The notes under the pieces were generated by a model, which was given only the letters and a program-made list of their open reading frames with translations, was not told where the DNA came from and searched no databases. This document shows positions 47,401-50,279 of a DNA stretch of 64,000 nucleotides, one piece after another. The stretch lies in the NCBI GenBank assembly GCA_964252035.1, contig OZ176209.1; one strand, 5' to 3'. The DNA comes from Podarcis erhardii (Eukaryota). Position 1 is the first letter of the stretch. The number at the start of each line of letters is the position of its first letter. The translations under genes were made by a program, and so were the position numbers.

Positions 47401-50279
47401 CATGCACAGATGTGTGTGTGGAGCTCCAGCATTTGTAACAGCCCAGTAATAGGCAGGCTTGGCAGTTTCAAAATGTTTAGGTTAGTTTACACAATAAAAA
47501 CGAAGCACTCCATAGACACCTTCCACTTACTTTGAAGTTCCTATGCAATTGAACTAGAGCAGGATGTCCTGTGTAAATAGGAGCCATTATCCGTATGCTG
47601 TCATTGGCTCAGTTGCAACAGCAAATTGATCAAAAGATAAGCCACCTTGTTCTGAGGCAGGTATTAGGAGTGTGCTAGAGCAATAAATAGCATTGTACAT
47701 CCTGTGCTGGGACCAAAATAGAGATAATAAAAGATTGAAACCCAGCTCTCTGACATTTCTCCTGGTATAGGGGATGTGTTTGTGCTTTGCTGTGATTTTA
47801 CAGAGATACAGTGGTGCCCCGCAAGACGAATGTCTCGCAAAACGAAAAACCCGCTAGACGAAAGGGTTTTCCGTTTTTTGAGGCGCTTCGCAAGACGAAT
47901 TTCCCTATGGGCTTGCTTCGCAATATGAAAACGTCTTACGAGTCTTGCGAGTGTTTTCCCTCCCCCCCCTTTTTCTAAGCCGCTAATAGCGCTAATCCGC
48001 TAAGCCGCTAATAGGGATGCTTCGCAAGACGAAAAAACCGCTAGACGAAGAGACTCGCGGAACGGATTATTTTCGTCTTGCGAGGCACCACTGTAGCCTG
48101 CAATGTGCTGCTAAATGCAGTTTCTGTGGAAACTTATTTCCAGTTAGCTTATCTAGATTTTCATTATGACACTATCTTAAATAGGAAATTGAATCTAAGA
48201 ATTTGTGTATGTTAGATGAATAATATGCCTTTTAGAGACATTGCAATAACTGCTGTTTACAGTATATATATTCCCTCCAATTATTTTCAATAAGATAGAA
48301 AGATTGCTCTCTCCATTCATAGCAGGAGTCATTTGCTTAAGATCTGCACAGTAGATGTTCGCTTTCCCAGATAATGCCACAAGAAGTATGCTAATGTATT
48401 ACTGAGAATATTCATCTATTTCTTTCTAGGTGCCTGACTACTACAAAATAATTAAGAAGCCAATGGACTTGTCAACCATCAAAAATAGATTGCAACTGCA
48501 TCATCCATTGTACACAAAACCAGAAGATGTTGTAGCTGATTTCAGACTGATCTTTCAAAACTGTGCTGAATTTAATGAGGTCAGAAAAGACTGTAGTGTG
48601 TGTGTGTGTGTGTGTGTGTGTGTGTGTTTCTAGGAAGGTACCATTGTTACCAAAGTCTAACTGTGGATTCTGTAATAGTTTGCAGAGTCACATAGCTGGT
48701 AATTTATATGCAGAATATAATTATAGGTCCCTTTCTTTAGCAGTGTCTGGCCTGCATTGGAGTTGAGATATGATACTAGGTGACAGTTAAATCATATAAA
48801 TTTCCTTACACATTGAACAGTACAGAATATTTGCATGGGGGAGAGAAATGAGGAATACTCAGCAGAAGTAATATTGTACTCTGAGATAAGGTTGTTAGAT
48901 CTCTCTTCTACTGCTGTAAGTCACTGTGTGTGAACAAACTCTCTCTTAGCCAAGAAGTGATAGAAAGTACCAAAGCGCTAACTAAGGTGCTAACATATTG
49001 TTGCATACTAGTTTTATACTACAAATGCTACTGTCAACTGTATCACAGTCACATCGTATTTTGATTTGTTAAAGTGTTGATTGAGTCCTTGAATTTTAGT
49101 TTGAGTAAGATGAATTTTATTCAACTAAAATTATTAGTAATTGTCAGGGGCTCAGGAGCAGAGGCACAGGGAAGATGGGAAATGGAGAGCGAGGGCGAGG
49201 AATCAGAGGGCAGTGTAGGAGGAGACAGTGGTCCGAGGGATTCCATAAGCCTCTCCAGCGAATCGGAAGATTCACAGAAGGGAGCGCCAGTGGCCAGGGG
49301 TAGGGGGGTCCCAAGGGGAACGCCCCAGGAGCAAGGGGGGAGCAGGGACTCCCAGAGTAGTAGTTGGAGATCAGGACCAGCTTCCCCACCAGAGCAGAGT
49401 GGGGGGAAGGGTCCCAGGCATCGGGACCAGTACTTCCCCCACCAGGGAGAGAAGACGAGGCAGAGCTGACCACGCCTTCCTCGGAGAGTCGTACAACGGA
49501 GGGGAGGTCAGATCCGGCCAGTGTCACGGAAGAGGGAAGCAGTGATAGAAGCAGTGTAACGGTTAGGAGAAAGGTCACTGGGTTGGCGCGAGAAGCAAGT
49601 TCAAATGTACAGGAGCGCGGGACAGCAGAGAGTGAGGATTGGGAACCAGGTCCTAAAGCACGCCGGAGGCAAGGGGAGGAGCTAAGCGACTCAGCGTCGG
49701 AAGAGTCCAGGAAGGGCAATGCCCCAGAGGGCAGGAGGACCCAGAGGAGGAGAGAGCAGCGCAGAAGGTGGAGCAGGGCTAGGATCTTAAACTGGTGCGG
49801 AAGGGGAAGTGATTCAGATAGGACTTCGCCGATCTAGAGTCTAGACGTAGGGTTGCACGCTCTGGCTTTAAAATGGAAACTATACTTCAATAAAGACTTT
49901 TGTACATAATATCAGCCTGGCGTTGGTCCTCTGTGAGCTGGGACCTAGAGGCAGCCCTGACAGTAATGTTTGTGTGTTCAAGTTGATTTACTTTGGTGTT
50001 TGACTTACCCATTTTTTTTATATGGGACTGCAAATATAAAACCTATGATATGTTGAATTTCCCCAACAGCCTGATTCAGAAGTGGCTGATGCTGGCATGA
50101 AACTGGAAGCTTATTTTGAGGAACTGCTGAAGAACCTTTTTCCAGAAAGAAAATTCCCTGCCCAGCCTTATTGCCGTGCTGATAGAGATAGTCCCAACTC
50201 AACAGATGACTCTGATGATGACTTTGTACAGCCACGGAAAAAACGTCTCAAATGGGAAGAACGCCAGTTTGTAAAATGA
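2024..50279 (+). CDS. TRIM24: TRIM24 / TIF1-alpha (RING, B-box1, B-box2, coiled coil, PHD, bromodomain), 19 coding exons, 1043 aa
   Basis: Exons 2024-2405, 22127-22245, 22820-22967, 23916-24048, 25410-25526, 27743-27857, 31111-31257, 32914-33031, 35862-36136, 36602-36769, 38434-38613, 40385-40520, 41275-41335, 42563-42731, 43106-43398, 45067-45202, 46667-46741, 48430-48579, 50070-50279 sum to 3132 nt, open, all GT-AG. Peptides match recalled TRIM24 ([53 protein letters not shown]). SVOPL lies downstream, as in the vertebrate synteny. Confidence 0.97.
4590..4837. mobile_element. hAT (Charlie-like) MITE
   Basis: TIRs CACGGGTAGGCAAACT / AGTTTGCTGACCCCTG; 8-bp TSD agttacag / aattacag (7/8). Confidence 0.85.
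5037..5273. mobile_element. Tc1/mariner-pogo (Tigger-like) MITE, family A
   Basis: TA flanks, CAGT(G)GTACCT TIRs; same family as 15753, 29948 and 62823. Confidence 0.85.
6268..10008 (-). pseudogene. L1 ORF2 (APE endonuclease, reverse transcriptase, CCHC), one premature stop
   Basis: ORFs 7189..10008 and 6268..7131 are in the same frame, separated by one TAA (7189-7191) plus 19 open codons. Motifs SWNING, QETH, GDMN, SDH, YRPISLL, QGCPISP, FADD, YLG, CWKC..H..C. Confidence 0.93.
10024..11071 (-). pseudogene. L1 ORF1 (coiled coil, RRM, CTD), one frameshift near the C-terminus
   Basis: 303-aa ORF with heptad coiled coil, [18 protein letters not shown] and [10 protein letters not shown]. After ~10198 the L1-like sequence continues in a shifted frame ([17 protein letters not shown]...PLEK*, stop 10024-10026), 15 nt before the ORF2 ATG. 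Confidence 0.85.
12467..13540 (+). pseudogene. Chapaev3 transposase, N-terminally deleted and degenerate (357 aa ORF)
   Basis: Motifs [53 protein letters not shown]. The N-terminal region appears absent. Probable substitution (KCVPLHNG) and small deletion ([14 protein letters not shown]) relative to the recalled consensus. Confidence 0.75.
14246..14428 (+). ncRNA. Candidate HDV-like self-cleaving ribozyme (probably decayed)
   Basis: Manual fold: P1 14246-52 with 14363-69, P2 14336-46 with 14418-28 (11 bp), P3 14347-50 with 14359-62, L3 UCCUAGAA, P4 14374-14406, J4/2 GCUAAA. Confidence 0.45.
14517..15475. mobile_element. Non-autonomous Tigger/pogo-like element containing a nested Sauria SINE
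   Basis: TA|GAGTGGTACCTTGGTT ... AACTGAAGTACCACTG|TA. Confidence 0.7.
14707..15052 (-). mobile_element. Sauria SINE (Squam1-type)
   Basis: Minus strand begins GGGACGCGGGTGGCACTGTGG (A box) ... AGTTCGAATCC (B box) and ends in a TTTACC-type tail. Confidence 0.9.
15753..15994. mobile_element. Tigger-like MITE, family A
   Basis: CAGTGGTACCTC ... GAGGTACCAGTG|TA; same orientation as the 5037 copy. Confidence 0.85.
18173..18625. mobile_element. Degenerate hAT-like non-autonomous element with an internal palindrome
   Basis: CAGGGATAGGAAAC start typical of hAT MITEs; 32-bp palindrome at 18247-18278. Right end and TSD not resolved. Confidence 0.4.
21255..21480 (-). mobile_element. Old LINE (L2/CR1-group) reverse transcriptase fragment
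   Basis: Minus strand reads CAG TAT GCT GAT GAT ACC = QYADDT; otherwise degenerate. Confidence 0.55.
22127..22245 (+). CDS. TRIM24: TRIM24 exon 2 (RING end)
   Basis: ccctag|TT GGT GTT...(V)[39 protein letters not shown]|gtgagt; 119 nt. Confidence 0.95.
22820..22967 (+). CDS. TRIM24: TRIM24 exon 3 (B-box 1)
   Basis: [49 protein letters not shown]; ccag| ... G|gtaaaa; 148 nt. Confidence 0.95.
23523..23819 (-). mobile_element. Sauria SINE with an internal deletion, ~97 bp upstream of the exon 4 acceptor
   Basis: Same head (GGGACGCGGG, GGTTCGAATCC) and tail as the 14707 copy. Confidence 0.9.
23916..24048 (+). CDS. TRIM24: TRIM24 exon 4 (B-box 2)
   Basis: (E)[43 protein letters not shown](R); 133 nt. 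Confidence 0.95.
25410..25526 (+). CDS. TRIM24: TRIM24 exon 5 (coiled coil)
   Basis: [38 protein letters not shown](R); 117 nt. Confidence 0.95.
25832..26720 (-). mobile_element. CR1 LINE 3' fragment
   Basis: Minus-strand ATTCTAT-type tail, CR1 3' stem-loop region and degenerate RT C-terminal sequence. Confidence 0.8.
27743..27857 (+). CDS. TRIM24: TRIM24 exon 6 (coiled coil)
   Basis: [38 protein letters not shown]; 115 nt. Confidence 0.95.
29625..29732 (+). mobile_element. BovB (RTE) 3' fragment
   Basis: ...ACGACTAAACAACAACAAC tail; 11-bp TSD attatacactc at 29614-24 and 29733-43. Confidence 0.8.
29825..30218. mobile_element. Tc1/mariner MITE (CCGTATTTTTCC ends) with a nested family-A MITE
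   Basis: TA|CCGTATTTTTCC ... GGAAAAGTATGG|TA. Confidence 0.7.
29948..30173. mobile_element. Tigger-like MITE, family A (inverted relative to 5037 and 15753)
   Basis: TA|CAGTGGTACCTCGGGTTA ... TAACCCGAGGTACCACTG|TA. Confidence 0.9.
31111..31257 (+). CDS. TRIM24: TRIM24 exon 7 (coiled coil)
   Basis: [49 protein letters not shown]|gtaagt; 147 nt. Confidence 0.95.
32914..33031 (+). CDS. TRIM24: TRIM24 exon 8
   Basis: [39 protein letters not shown]; 118 nt. Confidence 0.95.
33787..34119. mobile_element. Tigger-like MITE, family B, with an internal 24-bp tandem repeat
   Basis: TA|CAGTGGTGCCTTGCAAGACGAA ... TTCGTCTTGCGGGGTACCACTG|TA; repeated GCAAGACGAA subterminal motifs. Confidence 0.9.
35549..35612 (-). 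mobile_element. CR1 3' tail fragment
   Basis: ATAGAATTGTTGAGTTGGAAGG...GTCCAACCCCCTGC, as at the 25832 copy end. Confidence 0.6.
35862..36136 (+). CDS. TRIM24: TRIM24 exon 9 (Q/P-rich linker)
   Basis: (G)[17 protein letters not shown]...[25 protein letters not shown]...PPPPPPPQ|gtaaat; 275 nt. Confidence 0.93.
36602..36769 (+). CDS. TRIM24: TRIM24 exon 10
   Basis: [56 protein letters not shown]; 168 nt. The acceptor is duplicated upstream (see findings). Confidence 0.92.
36890..37260 (+). mobile_element. Degenerate L2-like ORF2 fragment with a short CR1 tail inserted (~37045-37082)
   Basis: TTTGCAGACAAAATT and GACCCTTGCCCTTCTTGG segments resemble squamate L2; CR1 tail ATCATAGAATTGTAGAATTGGAAGGGACC. 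Confidence 0.5.
38434..38613 (+). CDS. TRIM24: TRIM24 exon 11
   Basis: [60 protein letters not shown]; 180 nt. Confidence 0.93.
39263..39717 (-). mobile_element. 5'-truncated L1 (different subfamily from the intron-1 copy)
   Basis: ~20-bp TSD cctgatggagatggattttg (39243-62, 39719-38). Encodes ORF2 end [24 protein letters not shown] (stop 39643-45); poly(A)-rich tail. Confidence 0.9.
40385..40520 (+). CDS. TRIM24: TRIM24 exon 12
   Basis: [45 protein letters not shown]; 136 nt. Confidence 0.92.
41275..41335 (+). CDS. TRIM24: TRIM24 exon 13
   Basis: (G)[19 protein letters not shown](S)|gtaagc; 61 nt. An alternative in-frame acceptor 18 nt upstream (exon start 41257) is possible. Confidence 0.85.
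41401..42220 (+). mobile_element. 5'-truncated L2-clade LINE, open ORF2 C-terminus, 66 bp after the exon 13 donor
   Basis: ORF 41434..42111 ([44 protein letters not shown]); 3' hairpin and (TAA/TTA)n tail. Confidence 0.9.
42563..42731 (+). CDS. TRIM24: TRIM24 exon 14 (HP1-binding PxVxL box, two SUMO consensus sites)
   Basis: [56 protein letters not shown]; contains PVVML, IKQE, VKQE; 169 nt. Confidence 0.95.
43106..43398 (+). CDS. TRIM24: TRIM24 exon 15 (NR-box region, PHD start)
   Basis: [17 protein letters not shown]...[41 protein letters not shown](S); 293 nt. Confidence 0.95.
43751..43800 (+). repeat. (TCTA)n/(TCTG)n microsatellite, probably the tail of an adjacent minus-strand L2/SINE 3' end
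   Basis: Direct reading; followed by TTTGTATACCACCCTTCATCC. Confidence 0.8.
45067..45202 (+). CDS. TRIM24: TRIM24 exon 16 (PHD end, linker)
   Basis: [45 protein letters not shown]; 136 nt. Confidence 0.95.
46098..46509 (-). mobile_element. Solo LTR (ERV-like), 412 bp, antisense in TRIM24 intron 16
   Basis: Minus strand TG...CA; exact 6-bp TSD gtgaag (46092-97, 46510-15); CCAAT box, AATAAAA and a 16-bp tandem repeat in U3. Confidence 0.8.
46667..46741 (+). CDS. TRIM24: TRIM24 exon 17 (bromodomain)
   Basis: [25 protein letters not shown]; 75 nt. Confidence 0.95.
47809..48093. mobile_element. Tigger-like MITE, family B (short internal repeat; inverted relative to 33787)
   Basis: TA|CAGTGGTGCCCCGCAAGACGAA ... 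TTCGTCTTGCGAGGCACCACTG|TA. Confidence 0.9.
48430..48579 (+). CDS. TRIM24: TRIM24 exon 18 (bromodomain)
   Basis: [50 protein letters not shown]|gtcaga; 150 nt; conserved acetyl-lysine-binding Asn present. Confidence 0.95.
48596..48627 (+). repeat. (GT)16 microsatellite
   Basis: Direct reading; starts 16 nt into intron 18. Confidence 0.95.
49142..49962 (+). mobile_element. Solo LTR (Gypsy/BEL-like), 821 bp, sense in TRIM24 intron 18
   Basis: TGTCAGGG ... CCCTGACA (8-bp inverted termini); exact 5-bp TSD gtaat (49137-41, 49963-67); TTTAAAA ~49867 and AATAAA 49889-94. Confidence 0.9.
49182..49837 (+). pseudogene. LTR-embedded ORF, ~218 aa acidic/Ser-rich plus Arg-rich protein, one frameshift
   Basis: ATG 49182 (frame of ORF 49074..49469) joins ORF 49364..49837 if one G is added to the G6 run at 49401-49406. 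Confidence 0.5.
50070..50279 (+). CDS. TRIM24: TRIM24 exon 19 (bromodomain end, basic NLS-like motif, stop)
   Basis: [30 protein letters not shown]...[27 protein letters not shown] at 50277-50279. Confidence 0.95.

Follow-up and report, generated by a model that had tools for sequence, protein, structure and literature searches.

Reading frames of Pol that enter the LTR are already known from plant CRM elements and from one fish V-clade element, and separate retroviral genes that overlap U3, namely MMTV sag, lentiviral nef and foamy bel, are expressed from their own spliced mRNAs. In the pufferfish V-clade element, pol is reported to overlap the LTR in part (PMC11117352), Tf1/sushi elements are defined by an RNA 5' end complementary to a site after the 5' LTR (PMC6317226, 10.1101/2022.12.06.519325), and the Ty1 integrase tail has a long disordered C-terminal half, carries a signal for nuclear import and a short domain for targeting, and is a CK2 substrate (PMC8487063, PMC7459421, PMC9673352). 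A literature search returned no published case of a selected tail occupying all of U3. Here we analysed a solo LTR in a 64,000-nucleotide stretch of Podarcis erhardii DNA (the window; all features below lie on its + strand), which a preliminary description had taken to encode its own accessory protein.

The solo LTR and its full-length relatives

The coordinates first given for the solo LTR (821 bp, flanked by a 5-bp target duplication) were confirmed on recheck. The LTR (49142..49962) has termini TGTCAGGG..CCCTGACA and is flanked on each side by GTAAT, at 49137..49141 on the left, as supported by an empty site in organism B, and at 49963..49967 on the right. The DNA contig of organism B that carries the empty site lacks exactly 826 nt, that is, the LTR and one target copy. 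The solo LTR is a recent insertion in the last intron of TRIM24 (TIF1-alpha), the last coding exon of which follows at 50070..50279 (best match 2yyn, E 2.5e-10; acceptor AG at 50068-50069). Its poly(A) signal, AATAAA at 49889..49894, lies in sense relative to the host gene. The LTR belongs to the 822-bp type of a young family (family A), its best 40 copies being 99–100% identical.

Classification of the internal region of full-length copies, a check proposed earlier, pointed to a Gypsy chromovirus and not to a retrovirus. These copies contain gag, protease, reverse transcriptase (RT), RNase H, integrase, SH3, a degenerate chromodomain, a linker, a polypurine tract and the LTR, with Pfam domains in Gypsy order. 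As in Ty3/Gypsy elements, gag precedes PR-RT-RH-IN, the LTRs are of TG..CA form, target duplications fall within 4–6 bp and env is absent; both LTRs and a matching 5-bp duplication were found in 40 of 54 family A elements. The gag and pol frames overlap, and a GGGAAAC slippery heptamer, present there in at least 26 copies, suggests a -1 frameshift from gag to pol, as used by most Tf1/sushi members outside fission yeast.

An 11-nt segment at 49816..49826 is complementary to sequence after the 5' LTR. This putative self-primer matches over 10–12 nt in all 47 scored elements with a full 5' LTR, and covaries across 7 sequence types. The covariation points to self-priming and to a transcription start at 49816, where R would begin; U3 would then occupy 49142..49815 and, as the selection tests below suggest, would in 3' LTRs also code for an integrase tail. 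The self-primer duplex is present in the MFE fold, which overall is not unusual (z -0.98). A TATA-like CTTAAA (49786..49791), overlapping Leu-Asn codons, precedes the inferred start by 29–30 nt, with the same spacing in a second family, family B. On the strength of its anatomy, its putative self-primer and its gag/pol frameshift signal, we assign this young element to the self-priming Gypsy chromoviruses of Tf1/sushi type. The integrase C-terminus of family A gave no match to Pfam Chromo, and the stretch in question is 35–45% identical to proteins that pass that model there (the atlas lead was just 0.79); by these sequence comparisons, family A appears to carry a degenerate chromodomain.

The U3 reading frame and its selection

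The frame described previously, from an ATG at 49182 to a stop at 49835-49837 with a break at the G-run 49401..49406, was verified at each of these positions. Past the break, the ATG frame of the window copy terminates at 49467-49469, giving 95 aa. As assembled, the 218-codon ATG frame is intact in 24 of 30 loci retrieved with the LTR, the window being one of the 30, and so in 24 of the 29 other near-identical copies. Four of the six loci without an intact frame, the window among them, lost it through a length change in this G-run, and the run is a slippage hot spot (of 19 indels that arose in the frame after insertion, 6 fall here).

The ATG does not mark the start of the frame, as had been supposed: the frame is already open at LTR nucleotide 2 and, in full-length copies, continues upstream into pol. 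The LTR part of this Pol frame (49143..49837, about 231 codons) is broken in the window copy. The internal Met codon (49182..49184) is not conserved, being ATG in 44 of 54 copies (absent in 10/54), and the position is occupied by Thr, Thr, Leu and Met in four Podarcis Pol proteins, three of which thus lack it. U3 is purine-rich and T-poor, and in dinucleotide shuffles of a natural copy's U3 at least 218 open codons were reached in the sense frame in 18 of 3000 cases and in any frame in 40 of 3000. An internal duplication, with similar 9-mers beginning at 49371 and 49421, had been offered as evidence of coding phase; the arithmetic is correct but carries little weight, since it would hold by chance in 1 case in 3. 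The antisense ORF raised earlier as a caveat exists as an open frame (229 codons stop to stop) but lacks an ATG.

Selection was assessed in 54 distinct family A elements by comparing shared with private changes. In U3 (222 codons), shared changes comprised 130 nonsynonymous and 115 synonymous changes and 0 stops, with dN/dS about 0.43–0.44 versus 0.79 for private changes, compared with 0.39 for the linker between chromodomain and LTR, which likewise has no shared stops, and 0.13 for RT. Read in its other two sense frames, U3 gave 1.87 (4 shared stops) and 1.15 (17 shared stops). In a set of 40 elements with both LTRs, the counts on codon positions 1/2/3 were 57/66/136 for inherited changes (p = 4e-10) and 35/49/51 for post-insertion changes (p = 0.18), and stops were created by 0 of 259 inherited versus 3 of 135 post-insertion changes (p = 0.04). 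All three shared indels within the frame were multiples of three and all three past the stop were of 1 nt; among post-insertion indels, 1 of 19 was a multiple of three. The direct contrast of nonsynonymous to synonymous changes between inherited and post-insertion classes was weak (p = 0.036 for the 54 elements, 0.089 without CpG sites, and 0.085 in the 40-element set). Taken together, a dN/dS below 1, the third-position bias, the absence of inherited stops and shared in-frame indels in threes indicate that the U3 frame is under moderate purifying selection, as expected if U3 encodes a selected protein, a part of the original proposal that stands.

The frame as the probable end of Pol

Natural copies can be read from the integrase core via SH3 to the LTR stop: in full-length copies no stop interrupts the Pol frame between integrase and U3, across the degenerate chromodomain, a linker of acidic character and the polypurine tract, and the frame ends 21 nt beyond the inferred transcription start. 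With a probability of roughly 80%, we read the LTR frame as the 3' end of chromovirus Pol, likely encoding the last ~230 residues of integrase, probably a disordered acidic tail with basic clusters likely to serve nuclear import and/or chromatin tethering. The tail would be translated only from the full-length transcript, as the integrase C-terminus, and would stay joined to integrase after protease cleavage; it would be long, acidic and disordered with basic clusters at its end and, by analogy with Ty1 and CRM, may import or tether the integration complex. Each round of replication copies the U3 of the 3' LTR into the 5' LTR, so that all 5' and solo LTRs, including that of the window, carry a passenger frame, which their own promoter would not transcribe. 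Transcription is predicted to begin about 630 nt past the U3 ATG, so that a solo LTR would not express the frame, consistent with the original view that it is readable just from the 3' end of the element transcript.

The best-conserved acidic block of the tail consists of 14 residues (49248..49289) with Ser followed by acidic residues, which we take to be CK2-like; it is invariant in alignment A2 and varies synonymously across subfamilies. A first basic cluster, PKARRR (49652..49669), is followed by a 17-residue Arg-rich tip (49733..49783; 7 nonsynonymous versus 12 synonymous shared changes), the sole predicted helix of the U3 part (residues 508–530, in a low-confidence model whose mean pLDDT of 35.6 is too poor to demonstrate disorder). 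Basic positions of the tail stay Arg or Lys via up to four different codons, and the Arg-rich motif is, as had been anticipated, kept across copies, by synonymous recoding too. Its proposed likeness to Rev, by contrast, comes down to arginine richness, and the search for such likeness gave no family, structure or atlas match for the tail. Conservation of the Leu-x-Trp end, which overlaps the TATA-like element, may reflect constraint on the DNA.

The same layout was found in relatives. One Podarcis muralis Pol in UniRef (P0004; 1498 aa) contains the whole tail at 56% identity and has its stop at the corresponding position. In family B, which has a chromodomain about 40% identical to that of family A, an LTR of 413 bp and no significant DNA likeness, the Pol frame also reaches just past its own self-primer and ends in a basic cluster, with the chromodomain-LTR junction in frame in 27 of 33 copies and a U3 dN/dS of 0.49 for shared versus 1.08 for private changes. 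The codon-position test in family B was not significant (p = 0.21), and two copies have in common a 1-nt deletion within the frame. From these sequence features, family B is a second, distant family with the same Pol-into-LTR layout.

A separate U3 accessory protein could instead derive from a spliced RNA or from one with an internal start, as for MMTV sag or nef, with Pol continuity secondary or with both forms made. Of the 54 family A elements, 26 are out of frame at the junction between chromodomain and LTR (14 of 28 when elements were not selected), mostly because of G-runs in the polypurine tract, which weighs against the Pol reading. U3 stays open in most of these copies; a donor-like GTAAG after the family A 5' LTR, an acceptor-like pyrimidine tract in the linker and, in 53 of 54 copies, an in-frame ATG immediately preceding the 3' LTR would suit such an RNA. 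However, the linker is selected like U3, the donor-like bases are shared with the primer-binding site and have no counterpart in family B, where Val also stands at the junction Met, and out-of-frame junctions are not inherited. Their scatter on the tree (19 changes versus 18.2 when shuffled) suggests copy-specific slips or assembly errors; one four-member clade is out of frame in every member, each by a different change. With a frame continuous with integrase and an ATG that is not conserved, we consider this alternative unlikely and find the stand-alone protein of sag/nef/Rev type first proposed unsupported. Release by protease of a small acidic-basic protein from a tail made in frame, an RNA chaperone or nuclear regulator close to the earlier idea, appears quite improbable: the low-complexity stretch of about 370 residues past the chromodomain leaves room for cleavage and the predicted Arg-rich helix could bind RNA, but no cleavage site was identified, and the known long integrase tails of Ty1 and CRM work while joined to integrase (PMC8487063, PMC7459421, PMC3059260). 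Functionless, tolerated read-through of purine-rich, T-poor promoter DNA, which would fit the gap in dN/dS to RT, the many out-of-frame junctions and a conserved end that is partly promoter, is already largely refuted by the codon-position, stop and indel patterns, the synonymous recoding of basic residues, the persistence of the frame in Podarcis and family B, and its rarity in shuffled sequence.

Genomic distribution and comparison with known systems

Family A, unlike family B, accumulates in chromosome-end satellite. Outside C19, 65 of its 121 internal-region matches fall in the terminal 0.5 Mb of a chromosome, versus 8 of 76 for family B and 1.3% expected, and on 12 chromosomes 52 versus 8 matches lie at the satellite-bearing and the other end, respectively, a partly circular comparison. 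Among the youngest 760-bp-type insertions, 6 of 35 (two of them solo LTRs) lie in a satellite of ~507 bp, which accounts for at least 0.08% of the assembly, whereas 0 of 41 family B places do; a diverged relative (P0037) adjoins the same satellite. A tentative reading, which we regard as doubtful, is that family A is a vertebrate counterpart of CRM, in which a decayed chromodomain and an enlarged LTR-encoded integrase tail bias insertion to (peri)centromeric satellite at acrocentric lizard chromosome ends. Against such targeting, most family A insertions are dispersed, none of the 30 LTR loci of the window's 822-bp type touches the satellite, family B is older, the satellite arrays have probably been assembled incompletely, and the enrichment could arise from tolerance of gene-free DNA.

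The lizard frame shares U3-overlapping coding and an Arg-rich stretch with sag, nef, bel and HIV Rev, but runs on from pol, lacks a conserved start and gave no match to them in searches. Ty1 offers an analogy without homology, since it is a copia element with its tail inside pol and not in the LTR. Plant CRM group A shares a Pol that runs into the 3' LTR, but is primed by tRNA-Met, carries a CR motif where a chromodomain would be and piles up at centromeres, whereas the vertebrate element has a self-primer and a degenerate chromodomain upstream of the LTR, and is mostly dispersed; the comparison concerns mode of action only. The Podarcis muralis UniRef entry 'Gypsy retrotransposon integrase-like protein 1' (A0A670KNJ5) and its relatives belong to the same family, and their automatic models contain the tail, though as unstudied entries in which it is neither annotated nor marked as LTR-encoded. 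The Tf1/sushi and V-clade elements share with family A the domain order, a CCHC gag, self-priming without a tRNA site, a GGGAAAC heptamer where gag and pol overlap, Sushi-type LTR ends and the position of the chromodomain. Family A differs from Tf1/sushi in that its chromodomain fails the Pfam Chromo model, and from both in that its frame, under selection, fills all of U3 (about 225 codons) in addition to a 145-codon linker.

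The solo LTR and its reading frame

The solo LTR at 49142-49962 is flanked on both sides by a 5-bp duplication and lies in the last intron of TRIM24, where it has the orientation of the gene and precedes the last acceptor by 107 nt. The insertion is present in contigs of organism A and absent from organism B, of which a DNA contig holds the empty site, missing exactly the LTR and one target copy; the insertion in the window is therefore recent. The 40 best genome copies of the LTR (40 scored of 3075 first-look candidates) are 99-100% identical. The motifs named in the preliminary description of this LTR, PKARRR and an Arg-rich stretch, were all found where it had placed them. 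As assembled, the window copy has its frame broken at the G-run 49401-49406. Nevertheless, the long frame described there is genuine, being unbroken in 24 of 29 other fetched copies (18 of 3000 shuffles gave a sense frame of this length); what did not hold was its proposed beginning at ATG 49182.

In full-length copies the LTR frame continues pol. The 3' part of pol runs from the integrase core through an SH3 domain, a degenerate chromodomain, a 145-codon acidic linker, the polypurine tract and the whole of U3 (49142-49815 in the window), with the stop (49835-49837) 21 nt into R; in one subfamily of this element family (called family A) the stop falls three codons earlier, still within R. At the ATG the frame encodes an internal Met, which 44 of 54 copies have; in three of four Podarcis Pol proteins another residue takes its place. 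Two of these proteins have a tail reaching the same end. UniRef gene models already include this tail, without notice. The U3-encoded part had no match in Pfam, a PDB sequence search or the protein atlas.

Full-length elements (~6.7 kb), through which the preliminary description had proposed to classify the internal region, were reached via five LTR copies lacking a target duplication. This region is Ty3/Gypsy, with env absent by Pfam, which identified gag with a CCHC knuckle, protease, RT, RNase H, integrase zinc finger and core, and a Tf2-type SH3; a GGGAAAC heptamer lies within the gag/pol overlap. A search for a tRNA primer site in family A found none. The 10-12 nt that follow the 5' LTR are instead complementary to a stretch lying 147 nt short of the LTR end, and both sides of this self-primer covary (7 sequence types, 47 elements). 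Self-priming is described as a mark of the Tf1/sushi group (PMC6317226; bioRxiv 10.1101/2022.12.06.519325), and the LTR ends match the Sushi motifs of PMC3601003. Close relatives of family A are Podarcis sequences, which makes a lacertid host likely. The target sites of 40 elements show a weak preference that is symmetric, with G or A at the first position, A or T centrally and C or T at the last. Element L089, with 5' and 3' LTRs from different subfamilies that share only 89% identity, is a recombinant with a primer site that fits its 5' LTR type. A local insertion cluster at locus L036 (G000:C17:35872000-35880200) has a young solo LTR next to three family A LTRs, all diverged, that lie within 7.5 kb.

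The self-primer position places the putative transcript start at 49816, with a TATA-like CTTAAA 29-30 nt upstream. Since the ATG lies upstream of this predicted start, it would be missing from transcripts begun in a 5' or a solo LTR. A separate accessory gene, which could be expressed from, for example, a spliced U3 message, is improbable in our judgement. The continuous frame would also accommodate a tail released as a cleaved Pol product, to which we give still less weight. We consider the LTR frame to be the integrase tail and end of Pol, with a probability of about 0.8. An antisense gene in the LTR was rejected: its frame lacks an ATG and contains shared stops, and its low dN/dS (0.52) mirrors the sense frame, as does that of the RT mirror frame (0.23).

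As separate observations, the solo LTR brings a sense AATAAA (49889-49894) and a promoter into the last TRIM24 intron, shortly 5' of the exon (50070-50279) that completes the bromodomain, and could cause early polyadenylation of TRIM24 in carriers. An early TRIM24 intron holds a near-complete LINE (6268-11089, - strand; ORF1 of 309 codons, long endonuclease-RT frame of 944 + 306 codons), and a 364-codon transposase-like frame (12446-13540, + strand) is probably a DNA transposon remnant.

Selection on the U3-encoded tail

Sixty further elements were taken from 150 chromodomain matches, 51 for their long open frames and 9 not; after 9 of 64 were dropped for missing ends and 1 as a duplicate, 54 distinct elements with a complete 3' LTR remained, from LTR subfamilies 75-99% identical. 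Variants were counted per alignment column, separating shared from private changes. In this set, in which the choice of long frames is a bias toward intact pol, the dN/dS proposed in the preliminary description as a test of coding was 0.43 for shared U3 changes, with 0 stops in 222 codons, and 0.79 for private ones. Values for other parts were 0.13 (RT), 0.19 (chromodomain), 0.39 (linker) and, from few changes, 0.20 (Arg motif), while the other two sense frames gave 1.87 and 1.15 with many stops. Indel lengths, also proposed there, agreed in 40 elements with both LTRs: shared indels within the frame measured 3, 3 and 63 nt and those beyond the stop 1 nt each. One element had two inherited 1-nt insertions.

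The two LTRs of these 40 elements were used to separate inherited from post-insertion changes. Inherited changes favoured third codon positions (57/66/136, p=4e-10), whereas post-insertion changes had no such bias (35/49/51, p=0.18); the plain N:S contrast between them was borderline (p=0.036 to 0.089). Selection on the tail is real but moderate, at the level expected for a low-complexity tail, and neutral read-through is very unlikely.

The chromodomain-to-LTR junction was out of frame in 26 of 54 elements (14 of 28 in an unselected set), nearly always through breaks at G-runs. The most frequent pattern by a wide margin is an in-frame one (23/54), and the out-of-frame patterns vary from copy to copy. 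The out-of-frame state is unclustered on the tree (19 changes versus a shuffled mean of 18.2), and inherited junction loss was rejected as the general case; in family B, where the runs are shorter, 27 of 33 junctions are in frame. The simplest reading is slippage or assembly error after copying.

A second family and the genomic distribution

A 50%-cluster search gave 10 matches, with two distant proteins of the same layout as family A Pol, one of them belonging to family B, a distant Gypsy family abundant in this genome. Family B Pol reads across its 413-bp LTR and ends just past its own self-primer in a basic cluster. Of 41 copies examined, 8 lacked a complete LTR and 4 were duplicates; in the 29 distinct copies left, U3 dN/dS was 0.49 for shared versus 1.08 for private changes; the codon-position test was not significant. 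Family B combines a Pfam-grade chromodomain with a 100-codon U3 tail, whereas family A has lost the Pfam Chromo match and has a tail twice that length. A third chromodomain query (protein P0048) matched only more family B subfamilies. A conserved Leu-x-Trp end was rejected as a protein motif, as it overlaps the -29 element in both families. Locus L167 (G000:C19:1160279-1169279), a 395-codon open frame passing from a family B chromodomain through unrelated sequence to the terminal part of a family A tail, is a nested or chimeric copy.

Within 0.5 Mb of a chromosome end lay 65 of 121 family A internal-region matches outside chromosome C19, and 8 of 76 for family B. A ~507-bp A+T-rich satellite (39% G+C, sub-repeats of ~250 + ~130 bp) flanked 15 of 55 family A elements, at varied unit positions, and none of 50 family B loci (41 places, 30 with short flanks). 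It lies near one end of many chromosomes (for example in L184, L187, L262 and L264 and in the flanks of L119), and an 18-mer from it has 2455 exact matches in the assembly. This terminal position was observed on at least 14 chromosomes, and a single occurrence lay 3 Mb inside C19. As acrocentric chromosomes predominate in Lacertini (PMC10654178), the satellite may be centromeric. It was absent from 10 of 12 blind samples near chromosome ends. The youngest insertions among those of the 760-bp LTR type lay within it in 6 of 35 cases, and the window's 822-bp type in 0 of 30. Targeting of family A toward these regions is doubtful, because passive retention, age or under-assembly of arrays could also account for the pattern.

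Separately, C19 (2% of the assembly), which we guess is probably the W chromosome, accounts for 28 of 149 internal-region matches of family A and 74 of 150 of family B, and family A-like sequence adjoins telomere arrays at several chromosome tips (L179, L181, L185, L192-L195).

Possible role of the tail and precedents

With the LTR frame read as the end of Pol, full-length RNA would yield Gag-Pol via a -1 frameshift, and the protease would free an integrase carrying SH3, the chromodomain remnant and ~370 tail residues, acidic and Ser/Gly/Pro-rich, with two basic clusters at the end. By analogy with Ty1, the basic tip would most likely import or tether the integration complex. AlphaFold on 13 sequences reached a mean pLDDT of 35.6, and confidence was poor even in the SH3 and chromodomain parts; the sole tail helix was at the basic tip, in a model too weak to count.

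An apparent orphan accessory gene would then become a clean case of dual coding, in which 675 bases serve as element promoter region and selected integrase tail code in at least two lizard families. For annotation it is a warning: thousands of solo LTRs would contain a long ATG frame that looks plausible but is merely a passenger. To our knowledge, little is known of nuclear entry and site choice of Gypsy elements outside yeast and plants; young, abundant subfamilies differing in tail length, chromodomain state and genomic distribution offer a natural test of both in vertebrates.

Our literature search returned no account of this lizard family and no vertebrate element with a selected tail spanning U3, although Repbase, Dfam, GyDB, Butler et al. 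2001 or supplements may mention either. The extension of Pol into the LTR is already known. Among V-clade elements, one from pufferfish is noted to have it (PMC11117352), and in plant CRM group A Pol extends into the 3' LTR, where the LTR part encodes a putative targeting domain (PMC3059260, PMC3605345). The analogy for the basic tip of family A is Ty1, whose integrase has a large, disordered C-terminal half that bears an import signal and also a small targeting domain (PMC8487063, PMC7459421, PMC9673352).
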